Part shown: positions 10,186-63,566 of the stretch, one piece after another
How positions within the stretch are numbered: the stretch's first letter is position 1
How the letters are laid out: each line of letters opens with the position of its first letter
Assembly: GCA_963693365.1 (NCBI GenBank)
Contig: CAVNZM010000001.1
Span: 3,922,907 to 3,986,906 of the forward strand
Direction of reading: 5' to 3'
Length of the DNA stretch: 64,000 bases
Source of the DNA: Amoebidium appalachense
Lineage: Eukaryota > Protista > Ichthyosporea
Position numbers and translations under genes: made by a program
The notes under the pieces: generated by a model
Database searches by the model: none
Told to the model about the DNA's origin: nothing
The model's input: the letters and a program-made list of their open reading frames with translations, nothing else

Positions 10186-10299
10186 TTAGTGCTTAGTCAG
10201 CATGTCGATAATCTGGGGGGAGAAAGGGTGCCTGTTAGTGGCTGGATGAAATTTCTTGTACTCTACACGTGTGCTGGCTGGAGCGGGCAGGCGGGGGAA

Positions 10300-10336
<37 letters not shown>

Positions 10337-10567
10337 GTTTGCGTGTTGCGTGCATGTGTTCAAGTATATATGTGATGTTCCAAGCAACTAGTTTACACAC
10401 ATGCACCACATATCTGCTCATACACGCACCTGGTCCCTCTGTGCTGGCTGCAGGGTCTGGGCCAGTCTCAGGATTGCATCCACAGCAACGTCAGAGTGCG
10501 CCTGCCCAATGGCCTCGATCAACCCGAGCTGGTGCGCACGGCGCACGGACGCCACCTGCCTCTCAAG

Positions 10568-10632
<65 letters not shown>

Positions 10633-12408
10633 AGGGAGGGCGGGCGGGGGGGGGGGGGGGGGGGGGGGGGTAAGTGTTCTTCCTTCAGAAAACCACACCA
10701 ATAAGATAAATACATCATTTGGTGATGGTGGTAGTGGTGGTGGTGGTGGTGGTGGTGGTGGTGGGTGTCTTTGGGGAGAGGGGAGAGGGGAGAGGGGGGG
10801 GGGGGGGGGGGGGGGGGGGGATGATGGTCAAAAGTAAATCTCCTGAAATGCGTGTGGTAGTGCGTGTGTGTGTGTGTGCGCGCGCGTGTGTGCGTGTGTG
10901 TGTTGGGGGTCTAGACCAAACTATTCATTTGTGGTATGTGTATGTGTCCAGGGGTGCAGGGGCACGTACATCCTCCCTGTGGGCATCCAGCCACTGCACC
11001 ACGGCCTTGTTGTCCTCGAACTTACTGCTCAGCTGCGTCTCAAGCAGCCAGCGACGCACCATCGCCGTGGCCTGATACCCGTCTAATCAGAATTCAGAAC
11101 AATACATATTGGGCAAAAACCAAGGGGTACATTGGACTGCCGCCGCAGGAAAAAGACTGAATGAAGAGGTGAAGCACCACCGAAAAAATAATTCGGGTGT
11201 GGTGTGGTGTGGTGTGGTGTGATGTGATGCACAACCCAGCTTCACACGTGGGTGTATTCACGGCCCTATGACAGCACTACCCAACTACCTTCCGATAACC
11301 TAGGGCCTCGCTTTCTCGCATGCTTACTACCTATCTGCATGCCTTAACACCCACATGTACATATGCAAACACCCACATGTACATATGCCCCTCCATCTGC
11401 AAACACGTGTGCCCATGTTCATTATACGTACCTCTGCGAAGGTGACCTTGGGGTCAGCCTCCATGATGTCCCGGACCAGGCCGGTCTCGATCAGGCGGCG
11501 GCGCAGGGCGCCAGTAGAGGAACTCACGGCTGGTCTGCCACTCGAGAATCTCAGAGATGCAGCTGGAAGGTTCGAGAGTCAGTGGCCATGCGGCTACAAA
11601 GATAGAAGGGAAGGGTGAAGTGCTCGTGCTGTGTGGGCCAGCCATATGCAACCACACACTGATTAAAAACACACACGATGATCGGTCTGCTGCACGAAAG
11701 AATGGAAATGTGCAAATAGACAAAGAGGTTGCGATTAGAAAGAAATGGGATAAGAAAGAGAACTAAACATCCGAAGGACTCCTATGTATGTGTGTGCGTG
11801 TTCAGAATGTGGTCCAATCAGACAAGTAGGGATGGGCATTAGCACACATACCCCTTCTCCTTCATGCGGCCGGCCTTGTCGTGCAGGTCAGCAAACTGCA
11901 CGGCCACCTGGTGGTACATGGGCAGCAGGTCCTTCTCCCTCTTGCGCATCTGCCGGTCGATCTCCTTGATCTCCCCATCCACACTGCTGGATGCCCCCAG
12001 ACCACCGGCCTCCTCCTCCTTCTTCTTCCTCTCAACCGCCGCTGCACGTGCCTGCACCAGCCCCTTGTATGTCGGGTCGATCCGGGTCATGACCTTAAGC
12101 TGGTCGGGCTTGCGGAACTTGATCTCGACTGTTCCCTCCGGTTCTAGAACACCGCCACGTGACTCGGTGTCTGCGTACATCTCCATCATATCCGGGTTGA
12201 TGGACGGGTCAACCACCACCCAGGCACCACCACGGAGCTCACCGTTGGGCGGCAGGTAGATCATCGCGGGCTGCTTGTATTCCTGTGGGGGGAAAGGGGT
12301 TAGAATATGCTAGAAAGGTGGGTGGGAGGAGGTGGCGGTTGATCCAAAGGGAAAAGAAGGGAGAGGGATGTTAGATTGGAGGCGAGGGGAGAGGTGAGTG
12401 GAGAGGAT

Positions 12409-12461
<53 letters not shown>

Positions 12462-12866
12462 TCACGTACGCGGAGAGCGTCGACAATGTAGGCACCGTAC
12501 TTGAGGATCTCATCGAACATGTCGCGCATGCCGCCAGAGAACCCACGCCAGTTGGCAAAGACCAGCAGGGGCAGCTGCTCGTTGTTGAAGTCCTTCATGG
12601 CCTGCGCCGTCTTGAACGCACTGTCGGGGAACCACACCTGCCCGGCCTGCTGCAGGAGGCGGGCCTCGGTGTCCGGGTTGGCGGGGTCGGCCGGCTGCAT
12701 GACCTCAACGGTGCGTGTTTCCACGGAGACAACACCCACGGGGATACCGCCGAGGCGGGCACGACCAGTAACAACGGTGTTGGCCCAGCCACCCTGTGTC
12801 GGGAAGAATGGGAGAGGTGGTGATTTTGGTGTTATTTTTTATTTTTTATTTATTTATTTATTTATT

Positions 12867-12908
<42 letters not shown>

Positions 12909-13117
12909 GGTCCAAATAAAATGAAGGAGCATTGATATAGAGAAAGTGTTGGCAAGGAAGGAAGCTTGGGAGGGGGGAGAAAAGTTGATTCTGTATGGTC
13001 TTTGTGATGACAGTGGTGTACAACATAACTCACGGGAAAGGGCAGATTGGGGTAATGTTTGTGGGCTAGAGGAACAGGGAGGGAGGGAGGGAGGGAGGGA
13101 GGGAGGGAGGGAGGGAG

Positions 13118-13174
<57 letters not shown>

Positions 13175-14425
13175 GGGAGGTACATACCAGGCACTCAGTG
13201 AAGGTGTTCTTGTCGAAGAAGCCAGCCTCCCAGCGTGTGGGGTCCTCAGGGTGTGGGCGGCCAGCAAGCATGTGGCGCACATCGTAGGGCTGCTTGGTCG
13301 GGTAGAACTCCACAGGGCGCTCAACGGGGTCGATGGCCCGCAGGACGGGCAGGGGGGCATTGCGCCTCTTGGGCACGTAGGCCAGCCAGTTGACGATGGA
13401 CTGCACGCCAGCATAGTCGTCAGGCACCGTGATGTGGGACACACCGTTGTGGTACATGATCTGCGTGCCGCCCAGCTGCTGGTTGGACGAGTAGACACGT
13501 GAGCCCAGCACCTTGTTGAGCGCACCTGCACCGGTCAGGATGATGCTGGAACCTTCCACCTGGATGGTGCGCTGGCCCAGACGCACGAGGTAGGCACCAA
13601 TGCCCACAGACCGGCACGACACAAGCGTGATCGTCACCGTCTCCTGGTACGCCTGTGTGTGTGTTGGGGGGAGGGGGTTAGCATGAGTTACGGAGTACGA
13701 ACGACACATTCAGGGGGGGGGGGGGGGGGGGGGGGGGGGGGAGGGGAGGGGAGGCATGTTGAGTGGTGCAAAAGGCTGGGCGATGTGTGTGTGTGTGTGT
13801 GTGTGTGAGGAGAGAAGGAAGCAGAACATGCGATGCATGCAAAAAACGTACGTGCCTATTGTCGAAGCGGAGGAAATAAGCCAGCCAGAGATTGTTTCAA
13901 CGATTTCTCCACAAGGCAAAGCATAACACACACCTGAGAAGTCTCGCCGGCAATCATGCCGGAGCCGTGCAGATTCTCCACACCCAGGCCGTCATCCTTG
14001 CCCACAATGTCGATGATCTTGTACCGCACCTCGCCCTCATCCTCGATGCGCTCACAGTGCACACTCTTGCTGGCATCCAACCGCTGGTAGTCGGCCTCGG
14101 TCAGGTACAGATACTTGAACCCACGTGTCGGGTTGTCTGGAACGTTCCAGCTCACGCAGAACGCTTCCATGACCTCCTTGGCCAATCCGATGCGAGCACC
14201 ACTGTTGCATGAGATGTAGATGCGAGGAATGCCCTCCTTTCTCGCGATTTCGGAGGCCTTCTTGAAAACGACGTCTTCACGCACACCAAAGGAACCAATC
14301 ACGTGAGTGATGTCGTTGCAGATGAGCATCATGTCACGGCCCTCGGGGCACTCGGGGGTCACCATGTGCAGGCGGAAGGCAACCATGCCGATGTTGTACC
14401 TGTGTGTGCGCGGGTGTGTGTGTGT

Positions 14426-14488
<63 letters not shown>

Positions 14489-14989
14489 GGGGGGGGGAGG
14501 GGGGGGTTGAGTGTGTGTTCAGGGGAAGAGGAGAGAGGGAGAGTGACAATGTAAACAAGAGAGAGAGAAGGAGAAAGGGTGTGTGTGTACATGTGTGTAC
14601 GTGTGCCCGCGTGCATGTGCGTGCTTGTGTGGATGAGAGGGGGAGGGGGAAGGGGAAAGGATAGCTTCGGCTGTGCACAGGTAACCGGCTGGTAAAGGGA
14701 ACAGCAGGTAGGCCCATCAGGTAAAGGAAACACAAGGAAAGACCATTGAGGAAAATACAGCGAGGTAAACGGGAGGGGGTGCATAGCACGTACTTCTCCG
14801 GGGCCTGGGGGACGGGGACCAGGTTGTCGTTCTCATCGAGCACATAGTCGGTGATGGTGCAGTAGCTGCTGGGGATGTCCTGCTTGGATACAAGCCCACT
14901 GCAGGGGGGGGATGGTCAGTATATGTAATGCTCACACACAATAGGTGTATACAACACACGCAGTGCCCATTCACCCACCGGGAGGGGTG

Positions 14990-15024
<35 letters not shown>

Positions 15025-15216
15025 GGACATCTTGCAAAATGTATATGCAAGTTGTGTCATTGACTACCAACGGCCTTCGGGGGGTAGAAGGTGTGAGCGA
15101 GTGTGCGAGTGTGTGTATGGTGATTGTGGTGGTAACGACAGAGCGAAGACCAGGGGCTGTGGGGATGGCGTTGGAGCCGGGCGAGTGTGTGTGTGTGTGG
15201 GGGAAGGGGGGGGGAA

Positions 15217-15253
<37 letters not shown>

Positions 15254-15899
15254 CTTAAACTACCTCTGGCGGGCGTCCTGCCAGCGCTGGCGCACAGCCT
15301 GGCGGAACAGCTCGGGGAAGTCCCTGACGTAGGTCGTGCCGTTGGACTGAGCCGTGTATCTCTTGAGCTGCAGGTGCGTCTTCGTGGGGTACGGGTGGCT
15401 CACATCCAGGCCCTCGTACGGGCCCTTCTGCCCAACGGGGTACACGGTACGGAACACAGCACGGTTCTCCTCTGGCAGGTACTCCTCACGGTAGCAGAAG
15501 AACTGGAGGGAGAAACCGGAGTCGTTGTTGACGCACACACGCATGGCAATTTCATCGTCCGAGCCAACGAAACGGCACACGAGCTTAATCTCTGCTTGGA
15601 GGACACGGTTGCGCCAGAGACGTTTGCCGTGGCGCATGACGAGTTTCTGTGGGGGTGGAAGTAGGTGTGGGCAAGTATTCTTATCGGTTGGGCTACAAGA
15701 TAGGTTTAGGTGTTCCAGGGTTTGAACTTGCTATTGCACAATAGAGCAACACTAGGGCTACCATGATGCGTGTGTGGTTCGCAATGCGGAGAGGGTTGAG
15801 AGATAGAAAGAAAGAAAACAGATTCTGTGCAGGAATACATGTGGAGAACAGATTCTGAGCAGGAATACATGTGGAGGGGACCTTTCGGCAAGCGCCCAA

Positions 15900-15959
<60 letters not shown>

Positions 15960-17229
15960 GGGGATACATACGCTCATGGCATCTAGCACGGGCCCAATCT
16001 CCAGGGTGACGGTTGAGACGAAGTGCAGGAAGATGACGTTGTTGTCTGTGCCGGCATAGCGGGGGTCCTCGTTGACCACCTCCAGTTCGTTCAGCGCCTC
16101 AATCACCTGCCTCTCACCCTCAGAGAGGAAATACTCGAGCGACGCCTGAGTGCAGATCAGATCGCGATGGCGGATAATCGTGCGCACGAAGAAGCGGCGG
16201 TCCTGTGCAACGTTGGGCTTTGTCGTTTCCTTTGCCTGAGCAAAATACATGTGGATGTTCTGGTTGCCCGTCTCGATGTACTTGAGGTTGTAGTTCTCCA
16301 TGCGGTACAGCTCGAGCTGGAAAGCAAGGGCGGGCTCAAGATGGCGGTAGATGGTGTCTTCCTCGTACTGAAGACGGTCGCGGAAGGTGAAGAACTTGGG
16401 GAAGGCCTCCTTCTGCACAATCAGGAAGGTCACGCGGCGGATATCCCTCTCAGCAAGCTGTGCGCGCTTCGCAAGCACCACGCTGGCCATGATGCCCTTC
16501 ATCTGGTCGTCCGTCAGGTCCTGGCCCTTGACCACGTCCGTCAGGGCCACGTTGAGGATGTTGACTGGCTCGTGCCTGCCCTCCATCTGCTCCTGGCGCT
16601 TGACAGCATCCCGGTCCAGGTAGGGGAACCGTTCTAGAAGCTCCTGGAAGTGCGCCTGGAATTCGGAGAGTGCATCGAACACTGGGGGGCAAAAAAGAGG
16701 GGATTAGCCAATGTAATTGTATGGAAAATGTCTGATCTGGTTGATGGTGGTCACGCCCGCAAGGGTGCGCCGGGGGGGGGGGGGGGGGGGGGGGGGGGGA
16801 AGCACACCAGGCGAAGAAAAAATTGGCGGAGTAGAGGGAGAAAGGGAGAGAGGGAAGGGGGGTTATTTCCAAAAAAGCAACAAACAGCAAGGGAAAAGCA
16901 CACCAAGAATACAGCATGGCAAATCACATAGCAAAGAACACAGTAGAAAAAGACAAAACCAGCACGTACCGGCCATGACGCCGACCCTGGCAAAGTTCTG
17001 GTTCCGGTAGAGCTGGTCCAGCTGGTCGACCTGGTCGCTGACACTGGGCACCCGCTTGAGGCTGTTGCTGCTGCCCTTGCTGGGCAGTGACCCACTGCTG
17101 CTGGCTGCAGCGGCAGCCGCATTGACAAGGTTGGTGATGGCCGGATCATGGCTTTGGAAGTTGAGGTACTGGGGGGAGACGATGGCGGGTTAGAAACGTC
17201 CACGGAATGCAATGCAAATGTGTGTGTGT

Positions 17230-17268
<39 letters not shown>

Positions 17269-18294
17269 CAGAGCATGAGCTACAAGCAGGAAAGCCCAGC
17301 ACAAAGGAAGAGAGGCCGGGGGGGGAGGGGGGAGATGGGGGCTTTTACGCATACCTTGCCGTAGCCAGCAAACAGGCCCTTGATGGAGGGGTGAGTTTGG
17401 GGCAGCAGGAAGCGCCACTCAACCACGCGGTAGTCGGGGCAGTTCTGGTCGTGGGCAATGTTCTGGATGGCATAGGCACGGTATGCACGGCGCACATACA
17501 CCTCAAGGGCTGCCTGCTGGATCTGAAGGTTCTTGTGGTTGAAGAAGGCAGTCAGCACATCAAACACCGCACCGTTTTCATCCACCAAGTCCTGAAGGTT
17601 GTTGGCACTGGATGACCCGAGATTCTCAACGGCGGATTGGATGAAAATCTCCATGTCGAGGCACCGGCGCTTGAAACTTGGCATCACGCTAGCAATGAGC
17701 ATCTGGCGGGCCTTCACAGACACAGCACTGTTTTCCTTGGCGGTGAGAGAAGAGAGACGTTGGAGGAGGTTCTTGTCGTCAGCAAGCGCCTGGGCGGCGT
17801 CCCTCCCGCAGAGGGCGGTGAGCAGGCGGGCACAGAGCTTGTTCTTGTAGACAATGTGGGCGTGTGAGCGCACGATACCAACAAGACGGGGCACATCCTC
17901 CGTCTTGCTCTTCTCTCTGTGTGCGGTGGGTGCATGGGTGGGTGAAAAGGGGTGGGAGGGAGGGGGGAGGGGACAGGGAAGGAGGTTTCGGTAAGTTAGA
18001 AGGGGCCCACCGTATAGAGTACCTACCGAAAACGGATCAAGTAATACATATCAATGGGTTGGGAGGGGGGAGGAGGGGGGGGGGGGGGGGGGGGGGGGAG
18101 GTGGTGAAGGGGGACAGGACAAGGAGGGCTCTGGGAAGAAGGAATAAACGAGGGAACAGGATTGGCCATGCCAGGTGTGTGGCAAATGGAAGAGGAGGGG
18201 GGAGGGGGTGGGGGTGGGGGAATGCAGCTGACAACACCAAGCACAGATATGATGTGCAGGGACGAAGCGGGAGGCGGGGACGGGGACGGGGGAA

Positions 18295-18331
<37 letters not shown>

Positions 18332-18792
18332 GGGGGGGGGGGGGGAGGGGGGGACTAGTACCTGAGGGAGTAGAGGATATCCTCGAAATTGTTGTTGAGG
18401 CCCTCGTTGTTGTTGAACAGAGTCTCCACATCAAGATAGGCTTGCAGCAGCGACCCAAGCACAAGCTTCTGGTGCCCACGGATACCGTTGCGGTACCGCC
18501 CAATGATCTGCATGGAAAATCATGCGTCAGTACAGCCTTATGAGAAGGATAAAAAAGAGAGAAATGGGGGACGTGGGATGATGGAGGCAAGGAGTGGGGG
18601 AGGGCTCAAAACGATGACTGGGTTAGCTGGAAGCGACGGGGGGCGAGGGGAGGGGGAGGAGGATGTTGCCCTAATATGGCAGGGTGGGCCTCAGAGCCGG
18701 GGGGGGGGGGGGGGGAAGGTTAAGCCAAAATGGAAACGTGTATGCGAGGGACAGTTTGGAAGCGGGAGGGGGCGGGGGATGTGTGTGTGTGT

Positions 18793-18833
<41 letters not shown>

Positions 18834-19318
18834 TGAGAGGGTAAGATAACATACGTTAGAGATGGGCTTGACGGTGGTGAAGAAAGCATCCTGGTCGGCC
18901 TTCTTGGCCAGGGAGGCAGCGTGCTTGTCCAAAGCATGGGCTATGGCCTGGGTGGGGAATGTGCAGAACATGGAGTTGACACTGTAGGCGTACGAGGTAA
19001 GGAGGGCATTGATCTCGGCCTCAACGGTGGCGGGGATGCGCCCAGACAGGGCCGACAGAGCATCTTGCATCTCCAGGAGGGGCAGGCGGGCATCGTTGAG
19101 CGTCTTCATCAGCGTCTCAACGAGCTCTGTGGAAGGGGGGGGGGGGGGGGGGTGGGGTCAGCGTGTGTCCACTTGGGTAACGAGTTAAGGGGAAACTAGA
19201 GAGTTAGGGAAAGATCTGGACGAGGGAAGGGGCGAAAGGTGCGGTGGATATGAGGCTAGAGGGGGGGGGGAAGATCTGGACGAGGGAAGGGGGGAAAGGT
19301 GCGGTGGATATGAGGCTA

Positions 19319-19349
<31 letters not shown>

Positions 19350-21997
19350 GCTGGGGGGGGAGGGAGAGGTAATGAGGGATGTCGGGGGGAGTTAGGGGAG
19401 AGGTGACGAGGGAGGAGGGGGGAGGAAAGAGATGGGGGTGAGCAAGCACACATACCCTCCATGCGTGCGGTGAAGAGGGGCTCAAGGCAGATGTATCCGG
19501 CCATGATGTTGGCCAGGGCATCCTTGCTGACCGTGAACAGCTGGTGCGCCTTGCCCAGCGCAAGGTGGTTCTTGAAGTCGGGCAGGGGCTGCTTGTAGGG
19601 CTCAGCAAGCTTGACTGGAGAGGGGGGGGGGGGGGGGGGGGGTTAGTGGTTGATGTAGGGGTTCGCAGGGCATGTGGGTGGTGTGTGTGTGTGTGTGTGT
19701 GTGTGTGGGGGGGGGGGGTTTTGAATGCGTCAAAAAGTACGAAGTACACAAGAACAAACGGATAACACGATGCAGAATGCAAGCCATACATAAAGAGTAT
19801 GCATAATAAGCAGAGCCCATCCTCAGGGGGGGCCCACGTCATCCACAGTACCCGAGTTTCGACCTATTCCCCTCGTTAACGAAACCCAACTCAGATACTG
19901 TTTCACGGGGGGGGGGGGGTACATGGTGTCTGTGGGTGTGTTGGTGGGTAGGTGAGTGGGTGGGATGATGGGTAACCAATTTGATGCAGATGTGTGGGTG
20001 TCCAGGCAAATCGTCATGCTTTATGCAGGTATGTTGAGATGTGTGTGCAGGTGCAAATGTGTCGATGTAATATCTAATTGAGTGTATGGGTGAGTGTGTA
20101 GATGGAGGAGGAGCTGGATAGACGTACAAACATGACGTGCAATGGGAGATGTGGAGTGGTGTGGGGTGACACGAAAAGGGGGGGGGGGGGGGGGGAGGGG
20201 GGGGAGGGGAAGGGGGGAGGGGGGGAGGGAGGCAAGCGCCCAAAGGCAAAAGATGGACAGTTGTGTATCTGTCTGAATGCATGTGTGTACACACGTGTGT
20301 GTGTGTGTGTGTGTACACGCACACAACGCGCATGTTCTGAAATGGCAGAGGGGGAGCAAGGCATTTTCCATGCGTACCCTTTGAGAGGTCATCGAGTGTC
20401 AGGTGAGCCACAATGTGGCCAGCCTCCATGACGGCCCCAGCCTGCAGTGCCTGCCTGATCTTGCCTGCATGGGTGGCCACCAGGGGCATGATCATCTTCA
20501 TCACCTCGATCTCCGCAAACGGTTGGTCCGCATCCACATGGTCCCCATCATCAACCAAATACCGAACGAGCTTTCCAGGGGAGGTGGCACGGATGATAGT
20601 GGGGTCGTTTTCCTTCTGGAAAAGCATCGTCTTCCCGTCGATTGTGATGCGGTAGCGGTCGACCTCCTCCTTCATGTACACCACGTGCGATGTGTTGTCA
20701 AACATGATGAGAGACCCGCCATCGTTCAGTTTCTGCAGGTCGACATAGACGTATGAGCCGTTCATCTCGACGATGAAGGACTGGGGCCCTGTCTGGGAGA
20801 CCTGCAGGGTGAACTTCTGGTAGTCGTAGACCAGCTCTTGCTGGATCGTGGTCGTGAGGAGCTCCTTGCCAAGGATTTGCCCCCGCTCAAGCGCCCTGGG
20901 TCGATTGGTGCTTGGTCAGCTGACTTGGACGTAAACGCATGCATCAGTGTTTGCGGAGGAGATAGTGGAGGGTGGGTTTGTCAGGTGCGGGCACAGGGCC
21001 GGGGGGGGGGGGGGGAGGGGGGATGGGGGGGGGGGAGCTCGAGCTGAAGAGGTGGAGGGAGGTGGAGCAAGGAGCAGGGGCATGCCAGGGGGTGGGGTGG
21101 GGGTGGGGGGGGGGGGGGGGGGGGGGGGGGGGTGAGGGGGATCATTTCAAGAACGCACTTTGTGTATACGGCGTAGTTCTCTTCCAGGCGGGTCATTGCA
21201 ATGTGTGCGCCGGCAGCCACCACAGACATCATCTTGTCGGGCTTATCGCTCTGCATCTTGAGCTGGATCAGCCGGTCCAGCCAGGCCGTGCTGATCTGGT
21301 TTGCCTTGAAGTCCTCCGTCTCCATCAGCTTGATCAGGTACTCCACAGTAGTGCGGAAGTCACCCCGGATAGACACCTCACGCAGCGCCATAGCCATGTT
21401 CCGCCGTGCGTACTCTCTGTCCTCACCCCATGCAAAGATGTGGCCGAACTGCGAGTCTGCAAACTCGTGCAGGCCACCCGACGCACCGACACTGAAGTAG
21501 CCCCAGACGTTTGTGCTGCTGCGGAAGTTGAGCTCCGTCATGTTGCCGCTGGTCGGTTTGAACCCTGGGAACACAAGAGTTAGAAACTCAAGAAACATGA
21601 AAAACGAAGTCTGAATGGCTTGCAGGAAGCCCCCCCCCCCCCTCCCCCCCTAACACACGCACACACCCAGCCGCCCCTCGTCTTTCAGCAACCCCACACT
21701 CTACTAGTGGCCCCCCACCGGCACACATTCTGAGACGTCTTATCCCACACTCGTTTCGTCGTTGCACCCCGCCGCCAGTCCTGCTCCTTCCTAGTTTCCC
21801 CCCCCCCTCCCCCTTCCCCCCCTCCCCCCCCCCTCCCCCCTCCCCCCCCCCCCCCCCCCCCACCCAAAAAAAAAAATCTGGACAAATGCTAGGCCCATTC
21901 TCCTCCCCCTTCCATCATAATGAACATTTCCAAAATCACGCAATTCCACACCCACCTCTCCCCCACCTCCCCACCCCCCTTCTACCCCCACCCCCCC

Positions 21998-22045
<48 letters not shown>

Positions 22046-22552
22046 ACACACACTGCCCCACTCGTTCCCCTTTGTCCTCCGCACCCTTCCCTCCACTTAC
22101 CCTCATCGGGGTTTTCAGCGGTGATACGAGAGGCAATGACGTGACCATTAGGTCTGCGGCGCTTAGACAGATCACTGAAGTCGATGGGGGACGAGCCGTA
22201 GGGGTCCTCTCCGTAGAGCAGACGCACATCCTTGATGCGGTGCAGGGGGATACCCATGCCCACCTGGCGCACGTGCAGGAATATATTAAGTGATATGTCT
22301 TCTCTGACTGTTCTCTATTTCTGTCTGCCCCTCACTCTCTTACGTGTGTGCGAGTGTGTGTGCATGCGTGTATGTGAGTGTGTGCATGTGCATGTGTGTG
22401 TGTGTTTTGTGTGTGTGTGTGTGTGTGTGTGCATGTGTGTGCATGTGTCACCTACCTACTCATCTACTTGATATAACAACAAAAAAGAGAAGTCCACTTA
22501 GCCCCCTCCCCATCCCTCCATCCCACCTCCTCCCCTTTTCCAACCGCATAAT

Positions 22553-22593
<41 letters not shown>

Positions 22594-22615
22594 GACACAC
22601 ACACATACAGACACA

Positions 22616-22652
<37 letters not shown>

Positions 22653-22845
22653 GCAGCTGCGCCGCCGGCAGGTTGACATCCGTGATCATCTCTGTGCACG
22701 GATGCTCGACCTGCAGACGGGGGTTGAGCTCGAGGAAGTAGAAGGTGGGGGGGTTGCCGTTCTCCCCGTCCTGGTACAGATACTCCACAGTGCCGGCACT
22801 CACGTAGCCCACCATCTGGGCAAGACGCACAGCTGCACGCTCCTG

Positions 22846-22885
<40 letters not shown>

Positions 22886-23925
22886 GTGCGTGTGTGTGTG
22901 CGTATGTGTGTGTGTGTGTGTGTGCGTGTGTGTGCGTGTGTGAAGATGTGTGTGCACGTGGTTCGGGTTGGGGAAGGGCGGAGCGTGGATGGAGGAGGGA
23001 GGGTGTTAGCATGGCAAGAAATGTAGCATGCAAAAGCAGGCATAGCACTCGGCAGGTGTGTTTGCAGATCTCATCAAAACCACAAAAGCGCTTACGAAGG
23101 TAAAATGTGGAATAAGAACACCCTCCTGGGGGGGGGGGGGGGGGATCATCGGTATGGAGGGAGAAGGGAGTATACCATCTCCATGAAGGTCTCGACGGGG
23201 GCAACCTTTGCCGGTGCCTCCTCGATAATCTTCTGGTGACGACGCTGGACTGCATGGGGTAGGTGCGTGAGCATGGGATGGGCGGTTGGTGGCAAAAGGG
23301 GGGGGGGGGGGGGGGGGATGAGGATGGATTTGTGTTGTGTGGTTGTAGGCAACAAACTGGTGTGTGCTTATGAAGGAAAGCACACATGTCAGTATGTCTG
23401 TACGTGTTGATACCATAGGGAGAGGGGTGGGTGGGCGGGGTTAGTAGTTTTGGTTGTGGTGGTGGTGCGTGTGCGTGTGTTGGGGAGGGGGGAGGGGGGG
23501 GAGCTTTTGGGGTGGGAGCCTTTCGTGTAGAAGCTGTGTAGACGTGTGTGCAAACGTGTGTGTGGGTAGTGGTGATGGTGGGGAGGAGGGCTTTCGTGCA
23601 GAGGCTTTGTACAGATGTGCAAGAGTAAACGGGGGTGGGGGTGGGGGGGGTGGAGGGGGGGGCACGTATTTGGCATAAAAGTGTGCGGTTGAGTGCATGT
23701 GGTGGTGTTGCCTAGGAAAGAGCTGGAGGGGGGAGGGGGGGGGGGGGGGGGAGGGTTATAAATGTGAGGTAAAAGGGCACAGAAACAAGCACAAAAGGCA
23801 TCCATAAGACAACCTAGTACACAACTCCCAACCTCCCCACCCCCACCCCTACCCCGTCCCTACCCTCCCTAAAAGCACAGAAACACGTAACCACAATCCA
23901 CACACAACATCCACCCTATACCCAG

Positions 23926-23977
<52 letters not shown>

Positions 23978-25993
23978 CCACACCCGCACCCGCACCCGCA
24001 CCCACACACACACCCACACACACCTGAGCAGTCACGGCCATAGAGGGGGATGGCCTGGTTGTACTCGTCAGCCAGCAGCTGCACCTCCAAGTGTCTTGAC
24101 TGCTTGGCCAGCTGCATGATGAACACGGGCGACCCCGGCACCTCGGCTGCACAGGGGAAAAAGTAAACACGTGCGCATGGGGTAGAGAAGAATGGGTGGT
24201 CTCGTGGGTAAAAGAACATAAAAGGAGCGGCCATGGTGGCAGGTATGGGGGGTGTGCAACAAGAAGGGGAAGGGAGAAGGGGGGACACGGGGGAAGGGGG
24301 GGGGGGGTCAATGGGGAAGGGGAAAAGGATGGCAGGGAGACCATTTGGGTTGTGAATTACCGACAGCAAGTGAGAGATGCTATGCAAATGTGATGAACAG
24401 ACACAAATGGGGAAGAGGGGGAATCGGGCGGGAAGGTAAGTGGGGGGGATGGGGGTGGGCAGAAACAGGGAGGAGCAGCAGACAGGGGGCGTGGGGGGTG
24501 GGAGAGGGGGGGGGAAGAGAGAGTGGGAGGGTAGACAACGGAGGGACCTACATTGGACCTGACGGAACAGATTTGCAAAATTCTCCTCGTTGTCGACCTT
24601 GCGGATACCCTTTCCTCCGCCACCCTCCGAGGCCTTGATCATAACGGGGAACCCGACCTTGCGTGCAGACTCAAGACCCTCCTCTGCCGACTGCACCGTT
24701 CCCTGTGCGTAGATCTCGGGGGGCACCTCCAGGTACATGCCTGGGGCCATGTTCTCGGGCACGGGGATGGTCACACCCATACCACTCCATGGCAGGCAGG
24801 GCACCTGCGCGGACTGGGCCACAATGGTCGAGGCAATCTTGTCTCCTGCAGAGCGCATGCATGGTTAGTGTGGTGTGTGGTGAGGTCCTTAATTTTGCCA
24901 TGGCCATGGCGGATAGACTGCCAGATGGGAGGTGTAGAAGGAGGGCAACATATGGTGCAAAAGTTGATTTTGAACTGGCGGGAAGAAAAGACTTCCCGCT
25001 AAGAAGAAGATCGGGGGTTGTACGTGCGTGCAAGGGAAGAAAGGGCGACAGGTGAGGGGGTTAGCGGAGGAGGGCATGAAAGACCGGCCAAGGAGACAGG
25101 ACGTGATATACAAGGAGAAGGTGAGAGAGTGACCGGTGAAGGGGGGGGGGGGGGGGGGGTTACCGAGAGAGTCCATAGCGCTGGCGGGGGGCCCGAGGAA
25201 TGCAATGCCCAGACGCTTGAGTGTCTCGGGCAGCTTGGGGTTCTCAGACGCATGGCCCCAGCCGGCCCACACGGCCTTAAAAAAAGTAATGTTCCTTGTT
25301 AGTCTGTATCAGCCTCTAGATGCAAACAGCAGTTGGTAAAAGAGAAAAACAAGCAACAGTGGCGAGTGGCCCTGCTGGGTGGGGAGTGGTTTGGAAAGGA
25401 GGAATAAAGGCAGGAGGGGAGGGTGGGGGAAGGGGGGTGGGAAGGAAAGAAAGGGCGGTGGAGGGGGAGGGCGAGCGCGGGGCGGTGGGGCGCTATACAT
25501 ATAAGTAGAAGCCATGCAGACCAGACATAACAAGCATATCTCTTGTTATGTACTACAGAATATAGAGTAAACATTTAGGACTGACATTCAAATGCAGGCT
25601 TTAGGGGGGGGGGGGGGGAGGGGGGGGGAGGGGGGGGGAGGGGGGCACACACAAAAGTATGTATCAAGCGAAAGGGGGGAGGGGGGGGGGGGGGGGGAAT
25701 GATGCGCAGCACACACCTGGACCTTTGTGCGCTGGGCAATGTCGACAATCAGCTCCACGTTGGCATAGTTGTTGTTGTTGGTGCCCCCCGGCACAGGCAC
25801 ATAGCTGTCGGCCATCTTGATGTACTCCGCATTGATCTGCACCCCCGCGTGTCAGTCAAATGTGTGTGTTTGGGGAAGGGGGAAGGGGGAAGGGGGAAGG
25901 GGGAAAGGGGGGGGGGGGGGGGCTCCATGCAGTTGGGGTGGTAAGAGAGGATGCTTGTAGGGAATGGGAGGGATTTCATATTCTTTGGAGGAA

Positions 25994-26024
<31 letters not shown>

Positions 26025-26130
26025 AGAATAATTTTTGAATAGTGAGGTGAGCTGAGGAGTTCGTAAGTCCAGACAAGCACGGAGGGAGCGGGGGAGGGGG
26101 AGGGGGGAGGGGGGAGAGAGGGAGAGAGAG

Positions 26131-26172
<42 letters not shown>

Positions 26173-26942
26173 AAGAGGGGGGGGAGGGGAAGGGGTGCAG
26201 GTGGGGTACCCGGGGGAGGCACAGGGGGAGGGAGAGGGTGGAGGGGGGGGGGGGGGGGATGAGAAAGTAGAGAAACAAGGTAAATAATGAATAAATAAAA
26301 GGGGGAGAAGGGGGGAAGGTAGCTCAGGCCCACCTTGAGATCCTCAGGGGTGGCCATGGCCACGAACTTGATGGCGCGCTCATTGCCAAACATCTCATAA
26401 GAGAAGCGGCGGATGGAACGAATGCACTTGACGGCACCAATGCCGTTGTTTGCAATCAGAACACTCTCGATGGGCCGAATGCCCCCGTGCCGCTGAACCC
26501 AGTCGGCCACGGGCGACTCGCCCGAGTCTGCCCAGGGAACGAGGTGTGAGAAAGGGATACAACGGGGAAAAGTGTGAGAGAGGGATTTGTGGAGGGGTGA
26601 AGTGGCCGATGAAGGTAACGGGAGAAGGGCGGGGGGGGAGGCAGCAGCGAGGTTTTAGATTAGTTTGCAGTGGGACGAAAAAGGAAGAGTGTGTTTTGAG
26701 GGGGAGGGGGGAGGGGGGGACAACCACACACTGAGAAATCTCCCATCAAGTTTCAAATATCAAGCTGAATACGAAGACCCGGGCAACTAGTGGAGGCGGG
26801 ACTTTGTGGTCAAGGGTGGAATTGTTTGACAGGTAGGGCAGGTTGTGTGTGTGGGGGGGAGGAGGGGGGCGGGGGGGGGGGGAGGAGGAGGAGGTAAAGT
26901 CTGTGTGGAAGCGGACATACCATCAACAAAGAAGTTGACCAT
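10186..26942 (-). CDS. ACC1: Multidomain eukaryotic acetyl-CoA carboxylase (BC-BCCP-central-CT), 27 coding exons
   Basis: First exon ccaccATG (26942-26921, MVNFFVD) splices to 26527 (..[20 protein letters not shown]). Motifs [38 protein letters not shown], biotinylation EVMKM (20493-20507), [21 protein letters not shown] and [12 protein letters not shown]. Last exons 11071-10970, 10567-10430 and 10212-10186 (IIDMLTKH*). All introns are GT-AG with consistent phase. One +1 frameshift at 11506-11508. Confidence 0.96.
15817..15876. repeat. 30-bp tandem duplication in an ACC intron
   Basis: aacagattctg(t/a)gcaggaatacatgtggag x2. Confidence 0.9.
19211..19330. repeat. 60-bp tandem duplication (unit ends in a G-run) in an ACC intron
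   Basis: aagatctggacgagggaagggg(c/g)gaaaggtgcggtggatatgaggctaga+G10 x2. Confidence 0.9.
19719..19906 (-). mobile_element. Short interspersed element, copy B (188 bp), flanked by C-runs on both sides of its sense strand
   Basis: Reverse complement is identical to 62488-62674 except for one extra terminal A. Plus-strand G-runs at 19707-19718 and 19907-19919. Inside an ACC intron. Confidence 0.85.
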
Positions 26943-30746: not shown

Positions 30747-32672
30747 CTACTTTGCCAGGAGAGTATCAACTGACACTGAATCACGCTCAAGTGTCCCCAC
30801 TAGGGGTGGGTAGGATGCACGAACAATATATCCATCCTCCGACAGTTTTAAAAATGACTGCTCCAATAGATGTGCTCCGTTATCTGTCCCCATCAGATCC
30901 ATAAGTGGCCGGTACACATTCCTATGATACACCACGGCAGATATATGGCTCATACCCCCATTGAAGTTGAAACACTTAACCTTGCGCCGGCTAGGAACGT
31001 TGGTTTTGAGCGTGTTCTTCACCATGTCTGTATTGGCCAGGGTCAACCCACCACATCGAATCCCCTTACATCCAGTAGATTCCCCCTCCGCATGAAATTT
31101 CCACCCAAGAATTAAAGCGCCCCCTTGCTTTTCCGTCCGCATATGTCCACCACAGCGGGGATCCAAGAAATAATCTCGCAATTTCTTGGCAAAGTTGGGC
31201 TCGAAAACGGCTTGATCCGAGATAATCATAACTACGGGGCCCAGTTCTTCCCTCTCTGCGATCTCAAAAATGGACGAAGTTGCCGATGCAAAATCAGTTC
31301 CTGGCGATTGCAAAGTAGCGCTTGGGTCTGAATCCGGCCCTACATTCACCCTCATCACGCGCCAATACCCCACCGTTTTCAAAGCCTCACTTACTTGTTC
31401 GAAATTTGCATCTCGGTTTTCAGCACTAACAACGAATACCGGCATCGAGTGGCTCATCTCTGTGGCGGTACTAACGGGAGGGGGGCATTCCGGTAAAAAG
31501 AACCCCGAAAATTCATACTGCACCGACGGATTATTCACGCAGGTGTGAGAATACGCCTTAGCAACCGCTTCACACGTCTTTTCCACTGCGTGCGATTGGA
31601 TAGCTTGAGTGCGACATCCCTTGATCTTGCGTACGATTGGTCGGATATACCCACTGTGTTGTCGGTGAAAACGGTAGAAGTATTCGGGTTTCTTGAGTGG
31701 GTGGACCAGTATCGAGTTGTGGAAATTTGCGGGGGGGACAGACGGAAAGCGTGCCGCGATCTGCTTGTAGGTATGATTTGGACTTGCATTTTCGTACTCC
31801 CGGGGAGACACCCGCCAATTTTCCATCTGCCAATATAAATTCACCATTTTGCCGCCCAAATTCACCCCTTCCACCGTTTCCATGCACTCCGTTTTCCCAA
31901 TTTTTACGATGCATTTTCCCCATTCGACATCGTCGTGTTCTACTTTCCGTTCTTTGTAGCATCTGCGAATATGGGGTCCTACTCCTCGGAGCAGTTTCTG
32001 GCTTACGAAATTTCCGTGCCCCAGGCAATAGGGGTGGTTGTTGAGCCCCAAGATTCCCTTGTCTTCATGTCTTCCGACCCCCCTCTCTCCAAAATACACC
32101 CATTGATACGTGACAGAACGGAGGGCTTCTGTCAGCTGTTCGGTGTTGACGTATGTGTCTCCGTCAATCTTGCCGAACCACCTGTGCACATTTGTGATTG
32201 TGTGTATGTGTGTATGTGTGTGTGCCCGCACGTGTGTGTGTGTGTGTGTGCGCGCGCACGCGCGCGTGCATGTGTGTGTGCGCGTGTGCATGTGCATGTG
32301 TGTACGCTTGTGCGTGTGCGTGTACATGTATGTGTGCGTGTGTGTGTGCGTGCCCGCACTGAGCATGTGCACGCATATGTGGATGCCGGTTTTAATAGGT
32401 TGCGTAAAGTTGTGTAATAGCCGGGTCTTGAGGAGTCCCGGAAGGTTGTAGGTTATTTGTGTGTGTGTGAACCAAAGGGGGGGAAGGGGGAGGGGGGGGT
32501 TCAGATGGTTATGTGTAAGAGCATGTCTCCTTTATCCGCTACTACTATGATTTTTGGGTTGCAGTTTCTTGCAAATGTGTTTCCACTTTTACCGAGTCTT
32601 ACAAAATCTAGGAGGTCAACCTTCAAACTAGTAAAGCCGGGCGGGAGGGCCGGGCGGGAGGGCCGGAGGGAG

Positions 32673-36058: not shown

Positions 36059-49423
<13,365 letters not shown>

Positions 49424-56321: not shown

Positions 56322-57696
56322 AGTGCTGAGTGCGAGTGCGAGTGCGAGTGTGTGATGAGTGTGAGAGTGAGAGTGTGAGTGTGAATGTCTGTGTGCAAGG
56401 TCACACGTACTCTGCTGCACGGCACCCAGGCCCTTGATTGGGGTTGCAAACATCATGACAAGCATGATCATGGTGAAGATCTGGATGCTGCCCCCCATCA
56501 TCCACATCATAAACAGGTTCATCGGGATAGCCTTGATCGGCCCCTGCGCTATCTCCCACGCTTTCTGTATGTGGCATCGGTGGTTTGTTAGACAAAAAGC
56601 TCATGGTGGGCGATGGTGATGGAGATGTTGGTGGAGGTGGTGGTGGCTGGGGGGGGAGGGGGGGGACTAGGCATATGTTAGAGTTCAAGGTACACATGTT
56701 CACGACGGACAACAAACCTAGAGTATGCACAAAAAAGAGCTTCAAGAAGAGAAAGCATCATAAGTAGGGCCCACTCTCCAAGGGGAAAGGGGGGAGGGGG
56801 AGGGGGGGGCGGGGGGGGGGGGAGGGGGGGGACTGTGAGTGTGCACCAGACCATAGCCTAGAGGTGTACACTTTCGAAGAGGGAACGTCACCATGTGTAT
56901 GTGAGTGTAAGTGAATGAGTCAGAAAGTGAGTTTGAGTGAGTGAGTGAGTGTGTGTGTGTGCATGCACCCGTACATGAATCCCACGTGTGTACTCGTGTA
57001 CGCAGAAACACAGAAGCTGCAGGTGCACAAGTGCCTAGCCCACACAGGGAGGCGGCAAAAGGGACACACAACTAGACTAGAAATGCCCACATGATAGTTG
57101 GAAGCAACAATACGTTCACTTCGGCATGTATGCATAAGAGGCGCCACGTACTAACACATTCTCATAGCACACCTGTGTACACTCTGCTATAATCTCCCCC
57201 CCCCCCCCCACCGCCTCCCCCCCACTGGCACCTCCCCCCCCCTTCCCCCCCCCCTCCCCGGCCCCGCCGGTTGCCCAACCGATTCCTCACTATCCGCATT
57301 CCCCGCGCTAAGCCCAACAACACACAAACAAACTCGCAAAGAGTAAATCACATCCTAAACCAGCCCTGCCTTTCGCTCTACCTCTTTCATTATGCTTCCA
57401 CCCCTCTTCCCTTCCACGCTTTCTCCAAAAGCCTTCCCCCCCCCCCCCCCCCAACCATATTTCATCATCTTCCGACTCGACTCCATCTGGGAATTCCTCC
57501 TAAGCTGTTTGATTATCTACATGCTCGTTGCCACACACGTATACGTCCTTTTGCGTAAAGCGAAACACGCGATTCTAACTGTCACATACATAGGCACAGG
57601 AAGTTACAGTGAGCTCCACTCGGTGCATATTTCTACAGTCATCCGTGGAAAAATCCCTACGTGCAAGTGTATGTGCCTGTACGAACGCGCGCGCGA

Positions 57697-59126: not shown

Positions 59127-62116
59127 ATGAACCACTGGGTGGTAAGTTGTTCACTAACGAACAGGTGGTCACGGGGGGTGGGCAGGCACAAATTATATCC
59201 ATGCGCTGGAGGGGGGGGGAGTTGGCAGGAGGAGGGGGGGATGGGGGAAGAGGGCTGCACAGTTTCTATGTTGTAGGCTCAGCGTGTAAGCTGTCGCCCA
59301 TTAATGGCAGCTGACCACAGCTGAACAAAAACAATAAAATAAGAAAGAGAGCCTGGAAGTGCCTGTTCACGGTGCTCGGCCAAGCAGAGTTGCTTCACTC
59401 TCCTTTTTTGTTATTTAGCCATATCCAACTGCTCTATAACTGCTTATTTCGACACCCCACTGTGCCACATTCACATCTTCCTTGTTCCCGTGGGCGGTTT
59501 GTCCGCCTGCTTGGTCAGGTGCTGTCGTGCCTCCGTTTGTCTTATTCCTCTGCCACACACGAACGAGGATTCTTAATGTGGTTAATGTTTTGCTGCAATT
59601 TAATGTGCCTCCTGGAAACAGGGCTACGGCCAGGGGCTGCAGGGCAGCGGCGGTGGCCAGGGGGGTCAAGTACCCATGGGCCATGGCCAGGCAGGTGTGT
59701 GCGCCCATGTCCAGAAAGCATGTCTGTGACCGATTTAGGTGCCCAAATAACAAAGTGCAGAAAGAAGAATGTACAAGCCTTTATACTTTTCTTCGCCCCG
59801 TCCTCTTCCCCCCCCCCCCCCCCCCCCCCCCCCGGGGACCCCTTCCCTTGGGGAGGCCGTGCCCCGCTCATGTTGCATACATCGTGTGTTTGCTTTTGCG
59901 TGTCATCCCACATTTCACACGTTGTTCTCCTTGGCTATGCTTGTGCACGTGGATCGTACAGCTCTTTCCCCCCTCCACCACGCAGCGCTCTCCCATTCGT
60001 TTCTCTGTGTGCTGAGTTGCTGTTTTCACTGGCAGGTGGAGTGGGAATGTATGGGCGGACACCTGCTCGGCCCCAACAGCAGTCACAGTGGGGGACCGCC
60101 GGTATGTAATTGCTGTGTGCATATCAGTCGTGTGGCTAGATGGTGGCTCAGCGTGGATGGTGGTGGTTGTGTGGCTATTATGCTTGTGGGTAGGTGTTGG
60201 CGTCGAGTTAAACGTGCTGGCTGTGAAGTGTTTGTGGTTAGGTGGTGGTGTAGACATGACTGGTGAGTTGGGTGTAGTTAAACGGCCACACGTGTTTTTG
60301 TGTGCATGTGGAAAGCTTTCATTACTACGTTTTATAAAGAAATTCATAGAAGTGTTTTTTCTTCCTTCTTTTTTTTTGTGTGTACCGCCATTTTTGTTCT
60401 TTGGAGCTGGAGGCTAGGGTTGGGTAGGTGATGGGGTTTGCACTGTGTTGTCCGTCGTAAATGTGTACTTCATGCTCGATACACATTCTACCCGGCTCCC
60501 CTTCCCCCCCCCCCCCCCCCCCCCCCCGTTTGTCCTGCTCTCTTCCTATAGTTAGTTCTTTCCTTCTCTTCTCCGTATCCATTTCTTTCTCATTCCTCCT
60601 TTCTGTGTCTGCTGACCTATTCCCCCCCCCCCCCCCCCCACCCACCCCCGCCTTCCCTCTCCCCTTCCCCCTTTCTCCTGCATTCTTCCTGTGGTTACGT
60701 TTTTGCCCTTATTCTTTCTTTCTTCCTGCCCTTATCTCTCTTCATTCTTGTTTCTTTCCCACTGAACTTTCTTCTATTTTCTTTCGAATCCTACCCAGTT
60801 TTCTCTCTTCTCTTTTTCTCTTTTCTTTCTTTCGCACTCTCTTTCCCCCTTTGCATTTTTATCCTTTTCTACTCAACACTCGCTATTCTCTTTTTCTTTT
60901 CCCCGTTTTTTCTACCCATTCATTTCCTTCCCTCTTTCTCTGTTTTTTTGCAGGCAACCAGTTTGCCATGCTTCTTCAGTGGCTGATCAATAAGGCCATG
61001 ACCGACCAACGTGTAGCCCCCGCCCTAGAATACTTCAACAGGGCTCAGGTGAGGGCAGGGGGGGAGGGGGGGGGGGGGGGGGGGGGGGGGGGATGGGATT
61101 ATTGAGCTCAGACGAGTATTATTGACCAAAGGGAGGAAGGCGGGGGTGGGATGTAGGTAGGATAGTGAGGGGTGGGGGGTGGGGGGGGGGATTGGGAGGG
61201 GGGAGATAGAGAGAGAAAAGGAGGGTGGGATGTAGGTAAGATGGAGAGGGGGGGGTGGGGGGGGGGTGGGGGGGAGGCTGGGATGTAGGTAGAAGATTGA
61301 GAAAGGGGGGAGGGAGTGGGATGTAGGTAGGTAACAGAGAGAGGTGGAGGAGGGAGTGATAGAAGGTCGAGACAGAGGTGGAATGTGTGGCGAAGGTGGG
61401 GGGAAACACGGAGGAGGAAGAGGAAGGCACGGGCTGTCTGGGGACATTTACGAAGCTTCAATTTGCAGCTGCAATCTATGTACACTCTCGGGCGTATGTG
61501 CTTGAAAAAAACGTGCATGCAGGGGTGGGGGTTGAGGGTGGTGGTGGTGGTGGTGGGCGGGGGGGGTGCGTGGGGGGAGGGGGGCGGGGGAGGGGGGGGA
61601 GGGGGGCTTGCTAGGGATAAAAAGGGCTATGAAACTCGGACATGTATGTACGGGAATTGGGGAATAACTTACAACAATCTGCACATTTTCCCCACCCCCA
61701 CCCCTAAGCTCTTTTCCTTCCCTTCCAATTCAGAACCGGCCCATACACCCTTTTTCCGTTGTGTAAACATCCCATCCCTCCCGCCCCCTGTTATTTTCCA
61801 CGGCCATGAATCCTGTTGTTTTATCTGACTGGGTGGTGGATGGTAGGCGCTTGAGCTCTCCCTGCCTGACCTGCTCCATGTGATGAAGAACTTTGGCATC
61901 AGCATGCCCCCCCAGCTCAACGAGGCCACGGTCTACCAGGACTACAAGAGATATGTCGATGTAAGTCCCCAACACCCCTTGGCTCTGCTTATGTAGCATG
62001 CTACGTGTTGCTGATGTTGCATACTTGCCTGCTTGCTTTTTCTTGAGATTTGCTTCTCTTGTGCCCTGTGCCGTGCTTCTCACCGTGTAGCTGTACTTCA
62101 TGCCCTGTTGCCCATT

Positions 62117-62161
<45 letters not shown>

Positions 62162-63566
62162 ACGGGGGCTTTTTTTTTTTTGGAGCCATCTGTACCCCAC
62201 TGACGACACGTTTTGGTCTCTGGACCATGTTTTTTTTTGGTCGTGCATCCTGTGTTTCGTTTTGCATGCCTTTCTAGGGGTGATAAGACCCGCCCCTTCC
62301 CCCCTTTCCCGCCCACGTTTCCACCTTGCTTGGAGTGATTGCAGCCTTTATTCAGGCACCCAAACAAAATCATTCACGTCCCCCCGCTTACTGCTGCAAC
62401 TTTAACCCCCGGCCTTTCCCACTGCCCTTGCCTGCATAAGCAACCCTGCTCGTCTCTGATCAAGACGGGTGACCTACTCATGTTCAAGTGAAACAGTATC
62501 TGAGTTGGGTTTCGTTAACGAGGGGAATAGGTCGAAACTCGGGTACTGTGGATGACGTGGGCCCCCCCTGAGGATGGGCTCTGCTTATTATGCATACTCT
62601 TTATGTATGGCTTGCATTCTGCATCGTGTTATCCGTTTGTTCTTGTGTACTTCGTACTTTTTGACGCATTCAAACCCCCCCCCCCCCCCCCCCCCCCTTC
62701 ATGGCCCAACCATCCTGCCAATCACCCCCACCACATACATGTGTAGGCCTGTGTGCTAATGATCATATGGGTGGGGCTTGCAGTATCAGAGTCTCAAGCT
62801 GGTGGCAAACACCACGGCCCAACGCGCCAACATGGCAGCAAACCGAACAGGGGTGATGGGCAGGACAGGGGGTGCAAACATGTATGCATCTGCACAACAA
62901 CAACAACAACAACAGCAACAAAATTACGACTATGACAGTTACGACACTGATGGGTTGCAAGAGGTGACAAACAACGTCAGTTACCTGGGAACACGCACAC
63001 CCCTCCAGTCGGCCCTCTCACAGCAACAACAGGGAACTACGGGCCAGTTTCCTACCACCCCTTCTCCGGCGGCAAGCAGGGAGCCACAGCTAGCAGCGCA
63101 ACTCAGACAACAGCAAATACTGCAACAGCAACAACAGTTGATGGCTCAGAGGTCGGGTGCAAGCGCCGCACAGTTAATGGCGGCACAGCAAGGCACACCC
63201 TTCCAGTCTCGTGTGCCCACACCATCCCTCCAACAACAGCAACAACAGAGACAGATGGCCACCCAGCAAAGACAGACGCAGGACCTACTCACACCACAAC
63301 CCGCACATCCTTTCGGCGCCGTGCAAACCCCGCGACAACCCCCACCCCGCACCACCACGCCTACGCCCACACCTCAGCAACAAGCACCCATGCACCCCTC
63401 ACCACAACTCAGTCAACAGAGGGCCCACTCCCCGTATCCCTCCACACCGGCTGCCCCTGCTTTTGCGCAAGCAGGCATGGGGAATGTGGGGGCGGTGAAG
63501 ACAGAGTCCCCCCAATACTCACAGCCCTGCACCCCAGCTGCACATCAAACTGTGGTGCCCCCATCG
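59127..63566 (+). CDS. Gln/Gly/Pro-rich protein with a short helical (possibly RST/TAF4-like) domain; 3' end lies beyond the window
   Basis: In-phase exons 59127-59141 (tentative), 59622-59694, 60036-60101, 60954-61048, 61847-61960 and 62784-63566. Helical block NQFAMLLQWLINKAMTDQRVAPALEYFNRAQALELSLPDLLHVMKNFG is followed by poly-Q low complexity. The product identity is tentative. Confidence 0.7.
61142..61335. repeat. Dispersed GGGATGTAGGTA minisatellite within a G-rich intron
   Basis: Four copies of tgggatgtaggta separated by G/GA-rich spacers. Confidence 0.75.
62488..62674 (+). mobile_element. Short interspersed element, copy A (187 bp, may extend further 5'), followed by a poly(C) tract
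   Basis: gtgaaacagtatctgagttggg..ttttgacgcattcaaa then a C-run from 62675. Matches copies B and C. Located in the intron between exons ending 61960 and starting 62784. Confidence 0.85.

Follow-up and report, generated by a model that had tools for sequence, protein, structure and literature searches.

Truncated, poly(C)-flanked insertions in introns of Amoebidium appalachense as putative 3′ stumps of a Chlamys-like Penelope element

Analysis of a 64,000-nt stretch of the Amoebidium appalachense genome (contig CAVNZM010000001.1, positions 3,922,907 to 3,986,906; hereafter the window) revealed short insertions with C-runs on both sides, a fixed 3′ end and graded 5′ truncation, belonging to an abundant family with several subfamilies of different age. 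These copies are probably the 3′ stumps of a Penelope-like element (PLE) that behaves like Chlamys. Judged from the traits described below, the element appears to work like Chlamys, and its membership among the Penelope-like elements is putative. The A. appalachense genome comprises 202 Mb, of which about 50% is TEs (PMC11244446).

Young copies and their ends

Three young copies were found in the window: copy A at 62386..62674 (+; 289 nt, 5′-truncated, ending in A3), copy B at 19719..19906 (-; 188 nt) and copy C at 42033..42180 (-; 148 nt). Self-BLAST of copy A (62488-62674) against copies B and C gave 187/187 and 148/148 identical bases (E 2e-85 and 3e-64), with a difference of A3 or A4 at the end. 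Each copy is followed directly by a C-run, namely C23 for copy A (62675..62697, +), C12 for copy B (19707-19718) and C18 for copy C (42015-42032). These results bear out an earlier note, made from the sequence alone, which had described three identical copies with A3/A4 variation and a shared 3′ end fused to poly(C). Comparison of 40-nt ends likewise agreed with its description of copies lacking TIRs and poly(A): neither TIRs nor terminal direct repeats were found in the young copies (best local score 3-5), and no poly(A) was found at their 3′ ends.

The 5′ sides of the copies differ from that first description. C-runs on both sides had been noted for copy B only; our analysis found C directly 5′ of every young copy as well, as C6 at copy A (62380..62385, +), C13 at copy B (19907-19919) and C6 at copy C (42181-42186). 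The element's own letters at these positions are not C, and the C6 of copy A lies outside the element, whose upstream letters in other contigs differ. Only 1.9% of window positions come after a C6. Copy A had also been taken to start at 62488, as a 187-mer, with one copy 5′-shortened. The start of copy A was instead placed at 62386, where contigs have loose ends and the summed contig depth steps from at most 18 to more than 200,000. It follows that copy B has lost 5′ sequence as well and that the unit is not 187 nt long. The young copies thus form a series of 289, 188 and 148 nt with one fixed 3′ end.

Length, abundance and subfamilies

Public DNA contigs from the runs X1, X5, X15 and X16 were aligned on window positions 62200-63300. 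A total of 3035 contigs were found for X1 (1141 at 99% or more, 1008 at 95-99%, 746 at 90-95% and 140 lower) and 4485 for X5. Summed depth in X1 and X5 contigs was 0.2-1.25 million at 62385-62680 and at most 18 upstream of 62385; over most of the single-copy flank of copy A it was 33 (X1) and 12-17 (X5). From the 5′ side of the element to near 62570, summed depth, a rough measure and no copy number, rose from 4.7e5 to 1.25e6 in X1 and from 2.3e5 to 1.06e6 in X5. This gradient and the length series of the young copies support the earlier reading of a family of young retroposons whose 3′ end is fixed and whose 5′ truncation varies. For X1, when depth is divided by the single-copy value and by a further factor of up to 31, to allow for overlapping words, the copy number is bounded at about 1,200 to 38,000. 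Three copies per 64 kb scaled to 202 Mb give about 9,500, and "thousands" of copies is the safe statement.

One contig each from X15 (776 nt) and X16 (783 nt) exactly matches 62386-62665 and extends 463 and 474 nt further 5′, respectively. These exact matches come from two runs among whose contigs the unique flank of copy A is absent, and the window version is likely the dominant young form of the family. The repeat unit is at least about 750 nt long. It could represent a non-autonomous partner comparable to Chlamys-N4 or MRC1, or simply that end of a longer element which is commonly copied. Loose ends of contigs on copy A reveal at least two more subfamilies. Since independent DNA runs contain both the family and its flanks, the copies are not adapter or assembly artefacts. 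The identity of the young copies can be taken to mean recent spread, which is not proof of present activity. X5 differs from the window at exon positions 63019 and 63095, yet its contigs apparently extend over the 5′ flank of this insertion, so copy A may be common to two DNA sources.

Older copies in the window

The family is larger than the three copies first noted. Seven diverged copies were found within the 64-kb window, 55-71% alike to copy A and each ending at an intact or decayed C-tract. The copy at 40589..40687 (-; about 68% to copy A) has a decayed 3′ C-tract and was detected by nhmmer with copy A alone (E 9e-5). A head-to-tail pair consists of an upstream member at 46098..46183 (-; nhmmer E 0.042, self-BLAST to its neighbour E 5e-5), which is followed by a short C-run, and a downstream member at 45974..46074 (-; nhmmer E 7e-4), which is followed by C22. 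The copy at 56673..56784 (-; nhmmer E 0.005) lies in a predicted EMC4 intron and runs into a broken C-tract, as does a 3′ fragment at 60430..60491 (+; self-BLAST to the 40589 copy E 1e-6). A copy of a second subfamily lies at 61981..62119 (+) in the same intron as copy A and is followed by C40 (BLASTN E 3e-6, C-run included); by eye, it has an 18-nt block in common with a high-copy subfamily contig. A marginal 35-nt 3′ fragment at 13678..13712 (-; E 0.054, 13 bits), in an acetyl-CoA carboxylase intron, is followed by short C-runs and was not used as a profile seed.

The other six older copies seeded the profile, and their independent support is given by the BLAST and nhmmer scores. The profile had no match in the reversed window. 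Weak profile matches at 59846-59896 (+) and 14935-14978 (-) were excluded from every count.

Contigs related to the 40589 copy numbered 125 in X1, 249 in X5 and 153 in X3; X15 had 0 contigs on this copy, which is no proof of absence. The whole locus is spanned by one contig each in X1 (0 differences) and X5 (4 differences). The locus is therefore not an artefact of assembly, although the window itself may derive from X1.

C-tracts as insertion targets

The 3′ flanks genome-wide were read from older subfamilies, the flanks of the young subfamily being known from the three window copies. For relatives of the 40589 copy, 10 of the 18 loose-end consensus sequences listed (139 more exist) are on the 3′ side, and nine of these ten are long poly(C), each supported by 8-50 contigs with an agreement of 0.64-0.81, across three DNA runs. 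The remaining one (8 contigs) is C/T-rich without a pure C-run. Random 3′ flanks elsewhere in the genome would have spoken against the earlier reading; among the listed flanks of older subfamilies, poly(C) was found instead. Insertion into C-tracts, as proposed in the earlier note, is thus supported, each of the three young copies standing between two C-runs. Of the four refuting conditions named in that note, three were checked (3′ flanks, TIRs and artefacts), and none told against it.

An internal C7 at 62562..62574 (+) of copy A, running into a CUGANGA half core, is likely a truncation hot spot, where cDNA could pair with the target run. In 41 X5 contigs poly(C) replaces the element 5′ of 62562, and several older copies start near the internal C7; the breakpoints of copies A, B and C lie elsewhere.

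The earlier note had also suggested that the element seeds or extends the poly-G/C tracts of this genome. For this our analysis found no support, and we give next to no credence to the idea that C-tracts of the genome are created from a poly(C) tail which the element brings along or adds itself. Nearly all copies do end at a C-run, as that idea would have it. However, the 5′ C-runs at all three young copies are as expected for insertion into an existing run. The summed 5′ and 3′ C flanks of copies A, B and C are 29, 25 and 24, whereas the longest run in each tract has a median length of 20 and a mean length of 22. Moreover, an element end stands directly upstream in only 7 of the 116 window C-tracts of C8 or more. 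All seven are previously known copies, to which the profile added none. Among 232 control sequences the only clear profile match was the marginal 13678..13712 copy. Splitting of an existing tract suffices to explain the flanks; short, fully decayed remnants could be missed by such a search.

Two copies of a second short repeat (38298-38345 and 38667-38715, +), 88% alike over a length of 49 nt, lie antisense in an intron of a channel gene described below, and a C-rich tract follows each of them. They perhaps belong to another tract-anchored family, of opposite orientation.

Host genes, introns and strand

By TBLASTN, copy B lies in sense orientation in an intron (about 20377-19615) of an acetyl-CoA carboxylase gene, and copy C, also in sense, in an intron (42277-41408) of a CASTOR/POLLUX-like channel gene. 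Copy A lies in a predicted GT-AG intron of 823 nt (61961-62783) of an unnamed gene, three exons of which join in one stop-free frame; a 42-aa query found no homologue of this predicted gene. The location of the three copies in introns of different genes, on the host sense strand, was thus borne out, for copy A with a predicted gene. Exons of the channel gene match EukProt EP00123 Amoebidium parasiticum P016867 at about 100% along its length. The full channel gene extends over 36062-49423 (-) and encodes 772 aa, the next listed matches being from an oomycete and plants.

The co-orientation of the three young copies with their host genes, remarked on earlier, was observed, but alone it is not significant (P 0.18-0.25 given the C-tract positions). 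Young and old copies together, from searches that covered both strands, lie on the sense strand in 10/10 copies and 9/9 insertion events. For the nine events P was 0.003-0.009 over three thresholds, in a small sample with two of the gene models predicted. Of the C-tracts in the channel gene only 39-46% face sense, and of those in the unnamed gene 50-64%. C-tract polarity differs strongly between the neighbouring acetyl-CoA carboxylase and channel genes: 43/46 long C-tracts are sense in the former (9704-26937, -) and 9/23 in the latter.

The sense-strand bias is the only feature for which no precedent was found. Selection against antisense copies is the plain explanation. Over the last 100 nt of the element, T makes up 45% of the sense-strand bases; read in antisense, the sequence is rich in A and includes AATAAG and ATAAAG. 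A bolder alternative is strand-specific nicking during transcription. In its full form this alternative would hold that Penelope elements of Chlamys type with poly(C) as target, a lineage not described from any close relative of animals, have spread through Amoebidium introns in thousands of copies. They would choose their strand during transcription by nicking only G-runs of the template strand, which would leave every copy in sense orientation. We consider this full form rather improbable. If true, a retroelement of a culturable organism would follow a targeting rule that is specific to one strand and coupled to transcription.

Hammerhead-like part, folding and tandem joints

A hammerhead-like remnant was found at 62471..62544 (+; Rfam Hammerhead_1), 130-205 nt from the 3′ end of the element. 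It consists of stem II with a 49-nt insert, GAAAC and a short stem III, and is an incomplete ribozyme, scoring 14.2 bits (E 2.1) against an Rfam gathering score of 34. In a wider RNA-family scan the hammerhead was absent from the top matches. The CUGANGA motif stands downstream of GAAA, which is the wrong side, and none occurs upstream in the visible 289 nt. A lone CUGANGA was found in 7% of shuffles and both half cores within 60 nt in 0.4%, in a test chosen after the half cores had been seen. This part of the element weakly recalls the half core of some Naiads. Folding of the 187- and 295-nt sequences was unremarkable (z -1.0, -0.2 and -0.2), and RNAalifold found 0 pairs shared over the last ~55 nt of seven copies.

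The head-to-tail pair at 46183-45974 has a short C-run between its members, and repeated insertion at one tract explains it equally well. Among the contigs on 62200-63300, two single-copy joints lead back to element sequence; in one case the return comes immediately after a 3′ end. No full-length pLTR, inverted 5′ copy or 30-40-nt tail was seen. In a single-copy contig present in both X1 and X5, at window positions 62535-62545, two overlapping element pieces are separated by about 29 nt of a telomere-like repeat similar to TAGGGT.

Class of the element

Under the Chlamys-like reading, the insertion steps can be outlined from general knowledge of target-primed reverse transcription. A reverse transcriptase (RT) and endonuclease encoded elsewhere in the genome would nick the G strand of a C:G run, and the freed G-rich 3′ end would prime reverse transcription at the 3′ end of the RNA. 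Synthesis would stop early and the cDNA would be joined to the other half of the C-run, often where the internal C7 of the element offers a match to the run. An old C-tract would in this way be split rather than created, and the intronic position of the copies would follow from that of the C-tracts in genes. In the 98 of 155 candidate window frames that were scanned, neither an RT nor a GIY-YIG nor any other transposon domain was found.

Alternatively, a microsatellite-specific non-LTR element of the APE or RLE type might have mobilized the copies, which would then be a SINE or the truncated 3′ ends of a LINE, the C-runs being target or tail. We hold this to be unlikely. A fixed 3′ end and 5′ truncation fit it equally well, and the 3′ block is conserved across subfamilies at 55-70%, which is typical of LINE/SINE tails. 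A SINE-like unit could be indicated by the two contig ends at 463 and 474 nt upstream. The hammerhead remnant and the direct head-to-tail joints, however, lean to a PLE; no tRNA was found in the window, and no A box or tRNA-, 5S- or 7SL-derived pol III head in the visible 289 nt, the 5′ part of at least 460 nt lying outside view. Microsatellite-specific LINEs are known (Waldo, Mino, Kibi, Koshi and Dong; PMC3812793), but (C)n is absent from the targets given in the available part of that source.

A non-autonomous HUH element (Helitron- or Replitron-like), that is, a copy-and-paste DNA element with one fixed end, appears very improbable. The copies have no CTRR-type end, a feature of Helitrons, no terminal direct repeats and, as noted above, no consensus 3′ hairpin. 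Elements of this kind do insert in one orientation at their target and without TIRs (PMC10288648), and Helitron-type elements can target microsatellites (PMC3812793), but the graded truncation with C-runs on both sides closely matches the Chlamys case.

Several other classes were rejected. A canonical PLE (Penelope, Neptune, Hydra) or retrozyme does not fit, with the complete type I hammerhead missing from the visible part, as the sub-threshold score and the position of CUGANGA indicate. A DDE DNA transposon or MITE does not fit with the lack of TIRs and a 5′ end that is different in every copy. Introners make up a whole new intron; here the surrounding intron is longer than the copy, with the closest splice sites at distances of about 95-425 nt. 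Motif scans for the element gave 0 matches in metagenome contigs and 0 in viral contigs; with a looser pattern, two metagenome and two prokaryote matches lay inside phage or bacterial coding DNA, showed no further likeness and were attributed to chance.

Other repeats and genes in the window

An inverted pair of a short tandem unit at 3607-3699 and 3975-4070 (about 300 nt apart, 81% alike) is possibly a small fold-back element. An intergenic 75-nt direct repeat (79%) with ATTGG (CCAAT-box-like) words is present at 8025-8099 and 8315-8388. A long stop-free frame at 30750-32531 (-), with matches to Fringe-like and CHGN glycosyltransferases, lies in an otherwise intron-rich region.

Comparison with known systems

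The word "Penelope" is absent from the text of PMC11244446 and its two text supplements, and the repeat library of that study may hold the family unnamed. No description of Penelope-like elements of Amoebidium or ichthyosporeans was found in the literature searched (outside subscription journals, Repbase and Dfam), which, in the parts available, also held no report of Chlamys in holozoans. If the RT proves Chlamys-like, ichthyosporeans would be added to the range of the clade, beside the Naiads of animals, and a name would be available for one of the large unclassified repeat families of the Amoebidium genome. Thousands of near-identical insertions at one simple target, with several isolates sequenced, offer good material on PLE junction chemistry, which was called unresolved by Craig et al. 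(PMC8557442).

With Waldo, Mino, Kibi, Koshi and Dong the present family has in common 5′ truncation and, putatively, target-primed insertion into simple repeats; unlike here, their listed targets in the available part of PMC3812793 are ACAY, AC, TC, TTC and TAA and not (C)n. Closer likeness was found to the Chlamys/Naiad clade (PMC8557442), in which microsatellite targets hide target duplications, 5′ truncation occurs and no canonical hammerhead is present. Members of this clade insert preferentially at (C)n or (CA)n and encode an ORF that combines an N-terminal GIY-YIG, a CxC motif and an RT with IFD, which groups with PLE RTs. Traits of this clade found here are a fixed 3′ end with frequent 5′ truncation and no poly(A), a (C)n bias and, in the visible 289 nt, the lack of a canonical hammerhead. 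Partial tandems are described for the clade, and here there is a head-to-tail pair, also explicable by repeated insertion; separated half cores are noted for some Naiads, and here there is a sub-threshold partial match. Unlike the clade, the present family has shown no inverted 5′ copy or tail, and unlike the Naiads, an animal group that prefers (TA)n (PMC8557442), it occupies C-tracts.

In the tables of Craig et al. (PMC8557442) that were available, (C)n is listed as target for 13 of the 49 families of the Chlamys sheet and 0 of 54 Naiads, with no Hydra row. Among the Chlamys 3′ ends examined from that source, five of six have AA and then a C-run, with (C)n families assigned by file order. 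This AA-then-C-run junction of several Chlamys (C)n families resembles that of the young copies and of the commonest older end here, and no sequence likeness to Chlamys 3′ ends was apparent by eye, unaligned. The host is new and the behaviour is not: (C)n-targeting, intron-only, truncated insertions of about 128 bp have been published for Chlamys (PMC9977147, PMC8557442). In Chlamydomonas reinhardtii, Lopez-Cortegano et al. (PMC9977147) described insertions of Chlamys-9_cRei and Chlamys-N4_cRei with a median of 128 bp, all intronic and at (C)n; the available part of their account is silent on strand bias. Unlike that case, the host here is an ichthyosporean and not a green alga, and the family is known from sequence, with no RT or de novo insertion found. 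Like Chlamys-9 and Chlamys-N4, it combines a (C)n target with very short 5′-truncated insertions (100-290 nt here), an intronic location and 3′ ends free of poly(A).
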